DNA from: a virus
Lineage: Duplodnaviria; Heunggongvirae; Uroviricota; Caudoviricetes
Virus record (IMG/VR): IMGVR_UViG_3300035498_002028
Strand: one strand, 5' to 3'
Length of the DNA stretch: 64,000 nucleotides
Positions 18,120-48,999 of the stretch are shown one piece after another; position 1 is the first letter of the stretch; each line of letters starts with the position of its first letter. The notes under the pieces are model-generated. The model was not told the origin of the DNA. It was given only the letters and a program-made list of their open reading frames with translations, and did no database searches. Both the position numbers and the translations under genes were made by a program.

Positions 18120-18866
18120 TCACCTTTTATCTTGTTCTGACCTGGCTATAAATAATTTTTCGATTGCTTTTGTCTTATCAGTAGCTTTAATGCTTCTGCT
18201 TACTTCTTGTTGCCATATGCATTCAAAATCATTTGGTGCATTTAATTCAGACACAAAAATATAATTGTCTTTACTCCATTTTCTCACTGTTTCCCAAAAT
18301 TCATCATAATCAAAATTGACGGAATTGGCATATTGTTTCACGCCTTCATAGGGCGGGTCGCAATAAATGACAGCATTGTGAGGATTTAGACTTTTATAAT
18401 CAGACACCGCAAGAACTACTGTTTCCATATTTTCTAGTTGCTTTAATATATTATTAGACGCTTCTTTATAGTAATCTCTATATTTTAAACCATTTTTTGT
18501 CTTTTCATATCCAGGTGGAGCGTATCCACCATCAAACCATCTCCCGTTATAACTTGCTAAAAATCCTACGTTGCCAACATACCAATCCTCATAACTTCCA
18601 TTTTGATAATTGGCTCTTACTTCGTTGTATAATTCCCTTGGAACTTCATCTAATAATTTGCCGCCATTTTGCAAATGCAACCAAAGTGAAATTAGATACT
18701 GGTTTATATCAAAACCTAATCTGTTTTCACAATGGATTTTGTCAATGACATTACACCCCCCGGCGAATGGTTCTATATATGTGGTAATTCCATTATCATC
18801 AATACACTGTTGAAGTATTGGAACTATATGCTTTGCAATCCTACTTTTACTTCCCATGTATTTCAT
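18120..18866 (-). CDS. Dam-family DNA adenine methyltransferase
   Basis: MKYMGSKSRIAKHIVP...EPFAGGCNV...DPPY; contains CCCCCCGGCG at 18763-18772. Confidence 0.8.
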   Translation of the reverse strand: MKYMGSKSRIAKHIVPILQQCIDDNGITTYIEPFAGGCNVIDKIHCENRLGFDINQYLISLWLHLQNGGKLLDEVPRELYNEVRANYQNGSYEDWYVGNVGFLASYNGRWFDGGYAPPGYEKTKNGLKYRDYYKEASNNILKQLENMETVVLAVSDYKSLNPHNAVIYCDPPYEGVKQYANSVNFDYDEFWETVRKWSKDNYIFVSELNAPNDFECIWQQEVSRSIKATDKTKAIEKLFIARSEQDKR

Positions 18867-19741
18867 ATTTTAATTTATTCTCCTGCTTCTCTCTTGTTCT
18901 GTCTTGGTTATAATTCGTAATCAAAACCTCAATATCTTTACTTCTATCAATTTTATGATAGTTGCAATTACTATAGTCACCGTTTAAGTAATGAACATTA
19001 TACTTATTCTTCCATTTATCTAATCGTGGGTTTTCATATTTTAGATTATTACTTAGTGCAAAACGAATTCCTCTCGTATCTAAAGCATCTAAAATATCAA
19101 GTAATCTTTTTTCGTTATCATCAGACCATCCACCATTTTCATTATATGCCGCCACACTATTATAATAAGGTGGGTCACAGTAAACAAAATCTCCTGGATT
19201 GATACTCAGATAATCAAAATCATAAAATTGCTGGTTTATAAATATACAATTTTTGCTATGCAGTGCATCAACAAATGCAATGAACTTTTGTCTCAACGCT
19301 GGATTAAAACTACTCCTATTTTTACCAAAGGGCATATTATACTTCCCATTATTATTAAAACGTATCTGATAGTTAAATGCATAACATATCATCGTATAAA
19401 ACATGATAGGACTGTTATCACCAAAATTATACGCATTTCTCAAATCAGAAAAGCCTTGAGCATTTTCTTTGCTTAATCCATAATTACTGATAATAGAATC
19501 AATTTCAGACAATAATTGTTCTATATCAGTTTCTTTTAAGTATTCCATTAAACCAACAACATGATTTTCAATATCATTATAGATTACTTTTCTTGCTTCT
19601 ACATTTATGCCTACGTTGAACCCCCCCGGCGAAAACGTCAACAAAAGTATCTATATCTGTTGGAAATAATGGGATAATTTCATCTAATAGCTTATATTTA
19701 CCACCAACATAATTCAGTGGGCTTTTGATATAATTTCCCAT
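18847..19741 (-). pseudogene. Second Dam-family adenine methyltransferase, frameshifted within a C7/G7 tract (19621-19627)
   Basis: The N-terminus MGNYIKSPLNYVGGKYKLL...FVDVFAGG is encoded from ATG 19741 in one frame. The rest (FNVGINV...DPPYY) is in the -1 frame from 19644. A single G fewer in the G7 run gives a continuous protein. Confidence 0.7.
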
Positions 19742-25760: not shown

Positions 25761-26195
25761 CTACATATTTATATCAGCCAAACTTGCAATTCTGATGATG
25801 GCATCATCTGGTGTATGTCCGTCCCATTTTGGTGCATGGTCAAGCTCTGGTACATTGAAAATGTCCCAATATGGTTCAATATCATAATGATATGTAGCTT
25901 GTCCTTTTGGAGTGTTAATGCCTACAATAAACATTCCGTCATACATATCACCAGTATCATGCAGCCTGGACTTCCATGCAAGCTCCGGATTGTTATTACA
26001 GATTACAGCAAACAAAATTGCTCTATGATGATATAGCTCATCAAAGGTATGGTATCCATCTGATACCTTACCGTATTCACCATTTAGAATTAGTCTTGTA
26101 TCCTCTCTAATTAACTCTTTACTAGGCGTTTGCAAAACGCCAAAAGCCGCATAAATACGGCATTTTTTTGTTGACAAAATAAAATATCTCCTCAC
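25761..26195 (-). CDS. hypothetical protein
   Basis: 144-aa ORF. Confidence 0.45.
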   Translation of the reverse strand: MRRYFILSTKKCRIYAAFGVLQTPSKELIREDTRLILNGEYGKVSDGYHTFDELYHHRAILFAVICNNNPELAWKSRLHDTGDMYDGMFIVGINTPKGQATYHYDIEPYWDIFNVPELDHAPKWDGHTPDDAIIRIASLADINM

Positions 26196-33082: not shown

Positions 33083-33305
33083 TCTTTGCTAAAATATATG
33101 TTTCTCATTTTTGGCTACCTTTCTATTTGTTCTGTCTTGGTTTTGGTGCAGGTAATAATACTTTTGGAATATTACCACTACCTCCACCAGCCTTTAATGC
33201 TCTTGCAATTCCGTTTACATCATATACGGCTTGCTCAAAATGCCAACCATATGGGCTTAATCCTTTTAATGGATTAACAACCTCTGCATTATTCTTCATA
33301 CTTAT

Positions 33306-35187
33306 CTATCCTTTTTCAATCAATTTATAAGCATTTCTAAGAGAGCTACTACCAATATTCAATGTAAGTGTTCCAATAGTATCTTGGTCTTTTCTTATAT
33401 TGCTATTGTAATCATCATATACAATGGTATCTGATTTATTATCTGACACCAATGTTGCTGTAACAGTACCATGATTTTCTTTTACGCAAGGTGCACAACC
33501 AGAAGAAGAAACTATTCTACTTGCATCATGGTTACTTTTCATGTAGTTTCCTAGAACTTCAATTCTACTACTCCCCCGACACAATCATGTGTTAATGGAA
33601 TATCAGAAACTATAAAACTCTCTTCTCCATTTGTACCACCATTGATATCATCAAATAATTTATCTAATGCACACTCAAAGGCTCCTATTCCAGAGAAAAA
33701 GCTGCCGACCTTTAAATTGTCAAATAAATAAGGCATAGCTTTGTATAAATTTTTGTATATGTAATATAAAACATCAACCACAATTGAGTTTCCAGCTTGT
33801 TTGTATAGCTGCGTATTACTAACACCAGCATTACTAGCTCTGTCAAATGCTTCATCAGAAAAAGCCATAAGTCTAAAACATTCTCTTGGTGTTAATTTAC
33901 GGATTCTATAACCAACATTATTATTTTGTTCTATCACTCTTTTACCCCCCGGAATCTATTGTACGGATTGTTCCACATACATTATCTTTGAATGTACGCA
34001 AACCTTCATCCATTCTTTTCTCACAAATAATCTTTTCCATATCATCACTACTTTCTGAATACTTCATCATTTTCTTTATCCAAAATCAAAATTTTAGGTG
34101 GGTCTTTATAATCTGTTGCTCTTAATGATTGGCAACACCCCCCGATAGATAGAACTCTTACTCTATCCTGGCATCCTTTGTTTGGATTTAATGAACCTAT
34201 AACGCAAATTCCACTGTTCTTTTTCTTCATATAATTACTCCTTTTTGCTATGTTCTATAATTGCTGTTGGAGATTTATAATCACAAGCATTCAAACACCT
34301 AGTAATACCATTTGAATCATAAACCATGTTTGACTGATGTTTTCCAGTACCTTTATCAAGATAACCAACACAGTTTACACTTGAATCATATCCCATTGAT
34401 GTCTGTCTATGCTTCCTCTCCCCCCCCCCCCCGCACGAACAGTATTAGAAAATTCTTTATTTAGTTTTCCATTCTTTTCTAAATCTTCTAATAGCTCTTT
34501 TGCCTTTGGAGTATTAACATAAAACTTTTGGTCAACCTCATCTTCTAATACATCTTTAAGACGTATATCGCTATTAAATCCTTCCGGAAATTCAAAGAAT
34601 CCGTTATCTAATTCTTTTTTGATGATTACTAGATATACTCGTTCTCTATTCTGAGGTACACCGAAATCTTTTGCATTTAACACCTTGTAATATGTGTTAT
34701 ATCCGTATTCATTTAGTTCTTCAATGAACATATTAAATGTGTCTTTGAACTGTTTCCCTACAATATTTTTTACATTTTCATATATGCCCCAATTTGGTTT
34801 ATTGGCTCTTATTACTCTTAACCATTCAACTAATAATGAAGAGCGTGTCTTATCAATTTCTTCACTATCACATACAGGGCACTTATGCCTTTTTGAATAA
34901 TGAACTGTTAATGGATTGTATTCGTGATTACACTTTATACACTTCCATTTACTACCAGCTTGCTTACCTGCCACTGAAAAATCTTGACAAGGCGAACCTC
35001 CACAAATCATTGTAAATGGTTTTAATTCACTTTCATCAACCTTAGTAATATCGCCAAGATTCAAACTTTCGTCAACATCATGGATTGCACAGTAACTTTT
35101 TGTTGCATATTTATCAAATTCACAAAAATTTACAAGCTCATATCCTTTAGATGTTGAACTTATATTTTTATTTGTCATAATAAACAC
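33306..35187 (-). pseudogene. C5-cytosine DNA methyltransferase region broken into at least 4 frames by poly-G/C tracts (13, 6, 6 and 5 nt)
   Basis: 35187-34375 carries motifs II-VIII (EFDKYATKSY, GGSPCQDFS, ENV, GVPQNRERVY), ending in the C13 run at 34420-34432. 34230-34048 has a TRD-like piece (QDRVRVLSIGG...DYKDPPKI). 33937-33551 has motifs IX/X (RKLTPRECFRLMAF, QAGNSIVVD) then a motif-I-like VGSFFSGIGAFE. 33584-33306 is reachable across a C5 run. Confidence 0.6.
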
Positions 35188-48888: not shown

Positions 48889-48917
48889 TTTAATGTTTTA
48901 TAATAGCGTTTCCGCAA

Positions 48918-48999
48918 TGCTGGTAGAGAGATTTGAACTCTCACATCTAATGATACCGGAGCTTAAATCCGGTGTGTCTGCCATTCCACCATACCAGCA
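48918..48999 (-). tRNA. tRNA-Leu (anticodon UAA), class II with long variable arm
   Basis: Manual fold: acceptor GCTGGTA/TACCAGC, D-arm GTG-GAATGGCAGA-CAC, anticodon stem CCGGA/TCCGG with loop TTTAAGC, long variable arm, T-arm AGAG-TTCAAAT-CTCT, discriminator A; no encoded CCA. Confidence 0.65.

Follow-up and report, generated by a model that had tools for sequence, protein, structure and literature searches.

How is a methyltransferase gene to be read when it is interrupted six times over by frame changes and stop codons: as a broken gene, or as an enzyme that is made in parts? This question is raised by a locus in IMG/VR record IMGVR_UViG_3300035498_002028, a stretch of 64,000 nucleotides (nt) from a large gut or rumen phage, which is referred to here as the window. 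On its minus strand, from 35178 to 33123, seven open reading frame (ORF) pieces (A to G) in three frames make up one C5-cytosine methyltransferase (MTase) system, and all coding in the region around this locus is on the same strand. A preliminary description rightly saw a split C5-MTase here, but it distributed the gene over four frames and ended it at 33306. We think that the locus probably encodes a split, circularly permuted phage C5-MTase with multiple target recognition domain (TRD) modules, which are switched by poly-G contingency tracts. The pieces and the main elements within them are as follows.

34375 to 35178, minus strand: piece A (the "alpha" ORF), 267 amino acids (aa), with motifs II, IV, VI, and VIII, then TRDa; without motif I
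34870 to 34941, minus strand: zinc-ribbon-like insert, CxxC...CxxC, CIKCNHEYNPLTVHYSKRHKCPVC, within piece A between motifs IV and VI
34235 to 34396, minus strand: piece B, TRD module VGYLDKGTGKHQSNMVYDSNGITRCLNACDYKSPTAII, in a frame that stays open back through the G tract to 34444; lacks its own Shine-Dalgarno sequence
34048 to 34230, minus strand: piece C, an ORF of 60 aa that holds a single TRD module (..LSIGGCCQSLRATDYKDPPKILI..); strong start of its own (AGGAG, 7 nt, ATG)
33942 to 34070, minus strand: piece D, TRD module ICEKRMDEGLRTFKDNVCGTIRTIDSGG, then stop; cut off from piece E by a G6 run in the window
33551 to 33937, minus strand: piece E (the "beta" ORF), 128 aa, GTG start, with motifs IX, X, and then I
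33901 to 33860, minus strand: motif IX, RKLTPRECFRLMAF, in piece E
33799 to 33773, minus strand: motif X, QAGNSIVVD, in piece E
33712 to 33665, minus strand: motif I, KVGSFFSGIGAFECAL, in piece E, with helix A, followed by a tail of about 30 aa
33306 to 33584, minus strand: piece F, two TRD-like modules, F1 (IEVLGNYMKSNHDASRIVSSSGCAPCVKENHG) and F2 (VYDDYNSNIRKDQDTIGTLTLNIG..YKLIE); likely start, ATG at 33542
33123 to 33299, minus strand: piece G, an ORF of 58 aa that holds a single TRD-like module, VYDVNGIARALKAGGGSGNIPKVLL; start signal of its own (AAGGA, ATG)

All of the conserved C5-MTase motifs tested (I, FxGxG; IV, PCQ; VI, ENV; VIII, QxRxR; IX; and X) are found across pieces A and E, both of which match Pfam PF00145 (2.6e-45 for A and 3e-13 for E). 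Piece A starts with an ATG at 35178, with AGGAG 8 nt upstream, and contains motifs II (NFCEFD), IV (GGSPCQ), VI (ENV), and VIII (QNRERVY). It had been thought to end at the G13 run, but it reads through this tract (AGGGGRGSIDRHQWDMIQV, then stop) to a stop codon at 34375 to 34377, and its closing part is TRDa (SNTVRAGGGGRGSIDRHQWDMIQV, then stop). The zinc-ribbon-like insert has weak matches to Pfam zinc-ribbon families and to HypA and is kept in all homologs. As the preliminary description had it, motifs IX, X, and then I share one ORF (piece E), and the N-terminal fragment has no motif I. Motif X is separated from motif I by 28 aa, which include the conserved linker AMPYLFDNL.

The start signals differ among the pieces. 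That of C equals that of A in quality (AGGAG, 7 to 8 nt, ATG), F and G have weaker Shine-Dalgarno-like motifs, E has a weaker signal with a G-rich stretch before its start codon, and B and D have none. At the B/C junction a TAA is followed by a new ATG in another frame, and the F/G junction is an in-frame TAG; the B/C and C/D junctions contain no G run at all. Reassignment of the stop codon was considered for the F/G TAG and ruled out, given that the terminal TAG of piece C precedes TGA TGA and that ordinary ORFs tile the rest of the window.

The order of the motifs, II through X and then I, is a real circular permutation that is conserved across a family. Residues 9 to 255 of piece A align to residues 29 to 235 of M.HhaI; in D and E read as one protein, residues 51 to 110 align to M.HhaI residues 267 to 321, and residues 119 to 136 align to residues 13 to 30, which are motif I. 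Strand 1, motif I, and helix A are therefore gone from the front of A and placed at the end of E, with the break at about M.HhaI residues 28 to 30. Scanning IMG/VR twice, with A and with E, gave 160 loci on phage contigs of about 50 to 170 kb, and the order II-IV-VI-VIII-IX-X-I was present in every locus inspected (about 100 IMG/VR loci). Distant relatives (65 to 73% identical to A) are encoded in a single uninterrupted ORF; the 41 distinct intact ORFs (467 to 611 aa in the 8 listed) begin at motif II, contain a variable number of tandem TRD modules, and for the most part end about 20 aa past motif I. With a 60-aa query running from motif X to motif I, 330 clusters at 50% identity were found among 1.84 billion representative proteins, and the X-to-I junction is covered contiguously in all of the best 150 of these 330. 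Few stretches of the family are as well conserved as the linker AMPYLFD(D/N)L. Intact forms are present in cultured Lachnospiraceae (Blautia, Faecalimonas, Dorea, and Coprococcus), and databases annotate them only as "DNA (cytosine-5-)-methyltransferase."

Structure prediction places the C-terminal motif I within the catalytic fold. The AlphaFold2 model, which was made for the intact 407-aa homolog P0467 with a diverse alignment and not for the split proteins of the window, has a mean predicted local distance difference test (pLDDT) score of 78.7 and a predicted template modeling (pTM) score of 0.79, with low confidence confined to the TRD region. Motif I is modeled as a strand (386 to 391) and a helix (397 to 406) with pLDDT values of 90 to 97, and the top structural match is M.HhaI (E = 3e-17). 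A model of the 524-aa intact homolog P0214, based on a shallow alignment, reached a pLDDT of 45 and was not used. Circular permutation, which the preliminary description had rated as less likely, is thus the correct account of the family, and the break between motifs I and II is a natural topology unseen in a 2018 survey of REBASE, in which the 27 natural permuted enzymes were all of type H (the M.BssHII type) (PMC5944983).

Two further observations concern the makeup of the family. P0363 (362 aa), found with the X-to-I query, has the order IX-X-I-II-...-VIII, with motif I joined to motif II through ..ADVGGGYELVNFCEFD; it is a fusion of beta to alpha and has an M.BssHII-like order inside the same family, which hints at tandem or reordered copies and at a duplication route to permutation. 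Many intact members of 800 to 990 aa (P0361, P0138, P0160, P0168, and others) carry an intein, recognized by Hint and intein-splicing Pfam domains, and in P0361 it sits inside motif IV, between GGSPC and QDFS.

In the lineage of the window the split is permanent, and purifying selection acts on every piece in the frame that encodes it. All of the 24 closest IMG/VR loci have an array that is divided among several frames. The 120 closest database homologs of A are 240 to 390 aa long and those of E are 100 to 220 aa long; none of these has A fused to E, and no N-terminal motif I is present in piece A or its homologs. The same split architecture is found in the cultured isolate Ruminococcus sp. 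YE282 (NZ_FMUV01000001.1) and in a rumen Ruminococcus metagenome-assembled genome, both of which are 79% identical in A, and metagenome assembly is therefore not the cause. Where the preliminary description allowed that corrected reads might give one uninterrupted conventional MTase ORF, we found three hard-stop junctions without homopolymers and an isolate with the same split.

The ratio of nonsynonymous to synonymous substitution rates (dN/dS) was calculated within split genomes only, for pairs with a synonymous divergence (pS) below 0.6, because an earlier tblastn-based calculation against all loci was saturated at synonymous sites. In the pieces' own frames, the values were 0.06 to 0.18 for A, 0.06 for motifs IX-X, 0.18 for X-I, 0.02 for the TRDa tail, 0.24 for D, and 0.08 to 0.14 for the other modules, and in the other two frames they were roughly 0.6 to 7. 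Where frames overlap past the first tract, the TRDa frame alone is selected (dN/dS of 0.11 versus 3.5 to 4.7). A frame that overlaps the TRDa tail (ERKHRQTSMGY..) was considered as a selected dual-coding sequence and ruled out; it is simply the linker when A is fused to B. Exact copies of the ORF for piece C are present on three other contigs and of that for piece G on six contigs. In exact database look-ups, piece A had no match, and D plus E, C, G, and one neighboring gene had matches. Among 50,697 GenBank phages, a DNA search gave short matches to conserved motifs only, and a protein search found no close relative, the best among the matches listed being 30 to 44% identical and stopping at motif X.

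Some of the frame changes within the locus coincide with runs of G on the coding strand, and four such runs are listed here.

34420 to 34432, minus strand: G13 (C13 on the plus strand), in Gly codons of TRDa, at the A/B junction
34138 to 34143, minus strand: G6, in Gly-Gly codons inside piece C (LSIGGCC); in frame, with no frame change in the window
33945 to 33950, minus strand: G6, at the D/E junction; G6 separates D and E, and G5 joins them
33573 to 33577, minus strand: G5, at the E/F junction; one extra G would join E to the F modules (..HDCVGGSSRIEVLGNY..)

Three of these (G13 at A/B, G6 at 33945 to 33950 at D/E, and G5 at E/F) change the frame, which accounts for three of the six junctions. 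The G6 run in piece C is internal to that piece, which had been described as a TRD piece starting after it. That the G5 run opens a further frame was correct, since it is the E/F tract, although it had been placed at 33577 to 33581. At its present length, the G13 run leads in frame into TRDa; G14 or G11 would fuse A to B, and G12 or G15 would give an early stop (..GGEEA, then stop). It is, as noted before, the longest homopolymer in the window and the sole run exceeding 8 nt, and about 7e-5 such runs would be expected by chance.

G runs are concentrated in the split arrays. Coding-strand runs of at least 5 G occur at 2.9 per kb in split arrays (motif VIII to motif I), 0.20 per kb in the flanks, and 0.024 per kb in intact loci, at equal G content, and their density in the TRD array is thus about 14 times that of the flanks. 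Of runs of at least 6 G, split arrays have 2.08 per kb and intact arrays have none. Within the window, DNA MTase genes make up 8.6% of the sequence and hold five of the six coding-strand runs of at least 6 G (P = 3e-5). Likewise, Gly-Gly dipeptides are encoded with a run of at least 5 G in 6 of 10 cases in the locus and in 2 of 61 cases in the other long ORFs (P = 4e-5).

Genomes that are otherwise identical differ in tract length, and the change from G6 to G5 alters the D/E reading frame. Near-identical contigs from other samples (L161, which spans 8.3 kb, and L162, L164, L166, L167, and L168) are the same as the window over up to 8.3 kb except for G13/G10, G6/G5, and one single-nucleotide polymorphism beside the first tract. 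G10 and G5 occur together in L161, L162, and L164, which come from three independent assemblies (two from the Joint Genome Institute and one from Logan), and in these G5 yields D and E as a single 171-aa protein (P0001). The G6 at the D/E junction is shared by the window and L167, a Logan assembly. The L164 contig (Logan SRR11792166) starts 9 nt before the first poly-G tract, and this assembly break may result from tract heterogeneity or from poor coverage.

Among more distant relatives, the first tract is found in the same codons throughout and ranges from an interrupted G3 up to G13. In the 120 homologs of A, about 46 to 52 are in the TRDa frame, about 29 run into the early stop (..GGEEA), and about 21 to 30 are in the B frame. 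This agrees with the earlier proposal of a phase-varied MTase with G13 as a slippage hotspot, in that lengths vary between otherwise identical contigs and all three frames occur among homologs. Most tracts in relatives are only G5 to G7. In P0301, TRDa and module B share one frame, the presumed ancestral tandem, which suggests that the offset frames arose later, as an either/or switch. Close relatives also differ in frame at other tracts (at the C-like module, ahead of motif IX, and at E/F), where one genome is in frame and the other is not; for example, L006 has 5 more G at the C-like tract than L003, and its module is frame-broken at the GG tract. Such comparisons serve as single examples only, because indel counts between loci 93 to 97% identical are confounded by divergent and intergenic indels. 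At the E/F junction, a G run is also present in L171 and Gly-Gly codons are present in L009, L010, and L011.

The TRD modules themselves are found in several places. In the window, TRDa, B, C, and D lie ahead of motif IX, and F1, F2, and G lie past motif I, and in intact relatives several TRD modules are contained in one ORF. P0241 (94% identical to A) and the isolate locus L171 carry B as a fusion with A, and a weak B-like match lies inside the TRD array of the intact enzyme L037 (E = 0.001); a D-like module is in frame within the intact enzyme P0365. F1-like modules are directly ahead of motif IX in L003, L005, and L020. An F2-like module is located past motif I in intact L078 (53% identity, 1e-11), in one frame with E in L008 and P0009, and past TRDa in P0255. 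Piece G is 39 to 42% identical to a module of intact enzymes, the "INFGKQYRQGNRVY" module occurs inside the array, past motif I, or fused ahead of motif II (P0311), and intact P0361 has a TRD-like module past motif I. The positions of the modules therefore define two TRD sites on the circular map, the canonical one between VIII and IX and another between I and II. In L019 (7256 to 7837), two modules are joined exactly at Gly-Gly codons (..TIRTIECGG to VADLSYP..), and the module that separates them in L003 and L020 has been lost; recombination or deletion may also take place at G runs.

In the mechanism that we propose, alpha (motifs II to VIII and one TRD) and beta (motifs IX, X, and I) would assemble into one M.HhaI-like catalytic fold. 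The G runs would slip in replication, and possibly in transcription, and would in this way choose the module that is joined to alpha or beta: at G13, alpha would receive TRDa, TRD-B, or neither, G6 at 33945 would put TRD-D on or off beta, and G5 at 33573 would put the F modules on or off the C terminus of beta. The TRD modules, either as fusions with alpha or beta or as small separate proteins, could dock singly, in the manner of multispecific phage enzymes, and the combination of attached and free TRDs would decide which sequences are methylated on the phage DNA. In its present state, the window would produce alpha with TRDa and beta from the GTG at 33937, with B off, D detached, and C, F, and G as possible free ORFs. 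The benefit may be one of bet-hedging, in which methylation would protect the phage from Type II-like restriction while other hosts would restrict methylated DNA. Enzyme activity, alpha/beta assembly, the use of free or terminally tethered TRDs, the reversibility of the switch, and the ecological benefit are thus features that we infer.

Several points weigh against this mechanism. To our knowledge, no natural C5-MTase receives motif I, the central strand of the catalytic sheet, in trans, as would be required of beta, and the modules past motif I are tethered far from the canonical TRD position. Pieces B and D have no ribosome-binding sites, and because slippery sequence is lacking at the B/C, C/D, and F/G junctions, several modules could be reached only as free mini-proteins, if at all. 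The difference between G13 and G10 is exactly 3 nt and keeps the frame; frame switching at the first tract is therefore visible only among more distant relatives. Lengths of long homopolymers taken from short-read assemblies carry some error, and the modules used for dN/dS were picked by regular expressions, which favors conserved copies.

A bolder version is conceivable, and we put it forward tentatively. TRDs would be plug-in units placed at either end of either subunit, at the second site between motifs I and II, or free as proteins of about 60 aa, and, together with several poly-G tracts, they would give shifting C5 specificities from an enzyme of three or more parts whose motif I strand is supplied in trans. 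Such a locus would be a phage "phasevarion" for anti-restriction bet-hedging and, with the tracts in motif I of the Dam-like genes described below, part of a phase-variable phage methylome.

Other explanations account for some of these observations. Decay, which the preliminary description also entertained, would mean that an intact, permuted, multispecific MTase is being lost, with frameshifts arising first at mutable G runs. Intact relatives do exist elsewhere, several stops separate A from E in all genomes of the lineage that were sampled, and B/C, C/D, and F/G are plain frameshifts or stops without tracts. However, purifying selection in the pieces' own frames is strong in split genomes, even for modules detached from A, and the split persists among lineages that are just about 75 to 80% identical in protein and across hundreds of clusters. 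Tract positions are conserved (as at E/F in the window and in the four loci L171, L009, L010, and L011), downstream pieces bear their own start signals, and the 3-nt difference between G13 and G10 maintains the frame. The G tracts are also about 100 times denser than in intact arrays and must therefore have been created, not just struck by mutation, and we consider decay unlikely. An artifact, in which homopolymer miscalls in sequencing or assembly break one real ORF, would fit the three of six junctions that lie at G runs, and the start of the L164 contig hints at assembly trouble. It is nevertheless highly improbable, as no homopolymer is present at three of the junctions, long ORFs are packed closely over the remainder of the 64-kb window, the haplotypes recur across independent samples and assemblers, the isolate genome has the same architecture, and every frame has its own selection signal. 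Hardly any more credible is a pair of tandem MTase genes, of which the second would begin at KVGSFFSGIGA and would since have been truncated. Motif I does follow motif X as it would at a tandem gene boundary, and the joining of IX-X-I to II-VIII in P0363 indicates that tandem or duplicated arrangements exist or existed. Past motif I, however, the window contains only TRD-like modules with no match to motifs II to VIII, A and its homologs have no N-terminal motif I, and most intact homologs end soon after motif I. Moreover, the X-I linker is highly conserved, and the P0467 model places motif I in the fold at high confidence.

The remaining alternatives accept a functional locus and differ in how the frames are used. 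Programmed slippage of RNA polymerase or programmed ribosomal frameshifting could restore a single alpha-TRD-beta polypeptide, with tract variation in the DNA being secondary. Long G runs are plausible sites of transcriptional slippage, the A/B, D/E, and E/F junctions need just one G more or less, and if one template gave several isoforms, selection on all frames would also be accounted for. However, a path from A to E must cross B/C and C/D, which have no slippery sequence in the window, most tracts in relatives are G5 to G7, and heritable tract differences between genomes are seen directly; we regard this explanation as improbable. About as doubtful is a silent cassette store, in which out-of-frame modules would be untranslated and recombined into expressed alpha or beta positions. 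The same module types are indeed found at varied positions (before IX, after TRDa, after I, and before II), and the exact joining of the L019 modules at GG codons suggests recombination at G runs. Against this, the modules are all on the same strand, good ribosome-binding sites precede C and G, and selection on the amino acid sequence of untranslated cassettes could act only after transfer; a recombinase and flanking inverted or direct repeats were not noticed, in an analysis that made no search for them. For the modules without start signals, a cassette store is possible. Overall, a split and permuted enzyme with TRD modules switched by poly-G tracts is the reading that best accounts for the locus.

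Each feature of such an enzyme has a partial counterpart among known systems. Type H enzymes (M.BssHII, M.Alw26I, M2.Eco31IC, M.Esp3I, and M2.BsaI) have X followed by I in one chain, as does the window family, and their permutation has been explained by tandem duplication followed by truncation at both ends (PMC5944983). The window family, in contrast, breaks between I and II (II-...-VIII-TRDs-IX-X-I), and it does not have the break of type H. The engineered permutants cp35M.MpeI and cp33M.SssI, with a new N terminus at about residue 33 to 35, are active; they give full or almost full protection in vivo, with activity in extracts much below that of the wild type (PMC5944983). From these residue numbers we infer that they are broken between motifs I and II and so have the topology of the window family, although they are unsplit laboratory enzymes, CG specific and with a single TRD. 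D plus E also aligns collinearly across X-I to plant DRM2/NtDRM (PDB 4onj and 7l4h; E = 8e-5 and 0.004). The DRM break lies between motifs V and VI, and the DRM enzymes, unlike the window family, are eukaryotic, RNA directed, and dimeric and have no TRD array.

The TRD array recalls the multispecific C5-MTases of Bacillus phages (M.SPRI, M.Phi3TI, M.Rho11sI, M.H2I, and MtbP of SPbeta), which are orphan enzymes for evading host restriction, with tandem TRDs between VIII and IX, each presumed to recognize its own target. They are about 31% identical to intact members of the window family and share with it the tandem modules between VIII and IX. However, they have the canonical order, a single polypeptide, and no homopolymer switches, whereas the window system is permuted and split and the family has modules also after motif I or before motif II. 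Subunit structure has a precedent in the two-subunit C5-MTases M.AquI and M.EcoHK31I, which are split in the variable region, and detached fragments of M.BspRI, M.BsuRI, M.HhaI, and M.SssI complement one another (PMC3404938). As in M.AquI, piece A ends in the TRD region and motifs IX and X are on a separate ORF (E). Unlike M.AquI, in which alpha has motifs I to VIII, the window has an alpha without motif I and a beta that supplies IX, X, and I, and it has more than two ORFs and switchable split points.

Phase-variable Type III mod and Type I hsdS genes carry homopolymer tracts. For phages, a preprint cites poly-G tracts in receptor-binding genes of Fletchervirus, mentions in passing one in a methylase gene of Bordetella phage BPP-1, and presents phage contingency loci so far as mainly receptor-binding genes (bioRxiv 10.1101/2025.10.21.683753). 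The tracts of the window resemble these in that they lie in coding sequence, vary in length, and shift the frame. They differ in that several tracts occur in one C5-MTase locus, each at a TRD module, which would offer a combinatorial choice of specificity as opposed to an on/off switch. C5-MTase permutation, split MTases, multispecific phage MTases, and simple-sequence contingency loci are thus each known singly, and their combination was not found described; in the open-access literature we found no description of this type of permutation or of poly-G-switched phage C5-MTases.

The locus lies in a region for replication and nucleotide metabolism, with genes for a DNA polymerase, a DnaB helicase, an RNA ligase, a kinase, a CCA-adding enzyme, and an NAD-dependent ligase; the window also has genes for five transfer RNAs (tRNAs) and a transfer-messenger RNA (tmRNA). 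Four further DNA MTase genes are present, making five MTase genes in 20 kb in all. These genes and the RNA genes are as follows.

19756 to 18850, minus strand: D12-class (Dam-like) N6-adenine MTase gene, split by G7 in motif I (between DVFAGG and FNVG); C7 on the plus strand at 19621 to 19627
18866 to 18120, minus strand: second Dam-like MTase gene, directly downstream, with an in-frame G6 in motif I (EPFAGGCNV); C6 on the plus strand at 18756 to 18761
17861 to 17040, minus strand: N6_N4 MTase (PF01555), with C6 on the coding strand encoding Pro-Pro
37304 to 36315, minus strand: canonical C5-MTase, 329 aa, normal motif order
57531 to 58431, minus strand: cluster of tRNA-Lys, tRNA-Trp, and tRNA-Gln with the tmRNA (tag ANTELKAVA), which fills 57079 to 58578, a stretch without a long ORF
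48917 to 48999: tRNA-Leu

When repaired, the protein of the D12-class gene matches PF02086 at 4e-22, and the same G7 is present in contig L169 from another sample, which is 100% identical over 6.7 kb. The tracts in motif I of the two Dam-like genes fit a generally phase-variable methylation repertoire. The nearby genes for the RNA ligase, the kinase, and the CCA-adding enzyme suggest a tRNA-repair module. A tRNA-Phe call at 25821, on the opposite strand, may be spurious. At 61790 to 61804, near the 5' end of an ORF with an SH3_3 domain (61840 to 60980), the sequence CCCCCC-nnn-GGGGGG could be a hairpin or another slippery site. A 532-aa ORF at 51029 to 52627 (minus strand) matches phage "transposase" families (phrog_506, 1e-39), and the stretch from 46 to 50 kb has a G+C content of 0.39 to 0.40, compared to about 0.34 otherwise; an inserted mobile element may be present here.

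If this reading of the locus holds, a C5-MTase permutation broken between motifs I and II would be in natural use, one that was missed by a dedicated survey and is apparently tolerated by engineered enzymes. The permuted family is abundant, as it forms protein clusters by the hundred in Ruminococcus and Lachnospiraceae phages and prophages, and loci such as this one are at present annotated as fragments or pseudogenes. The enzyme appears to have been dismantled at the boundaries of its TRDs, which makes the autonomy of TRDs, a long-standing question, directly testable and could provide parts for split or programmable methyltransferases. The newly recognized idea of the phage contingency locus would be widened from receptor-binding genes to DNA modification, and phages may by this means spread their risk over hosts that restrict DNA lacking methylation and hosts that restrict DNA carrying it.

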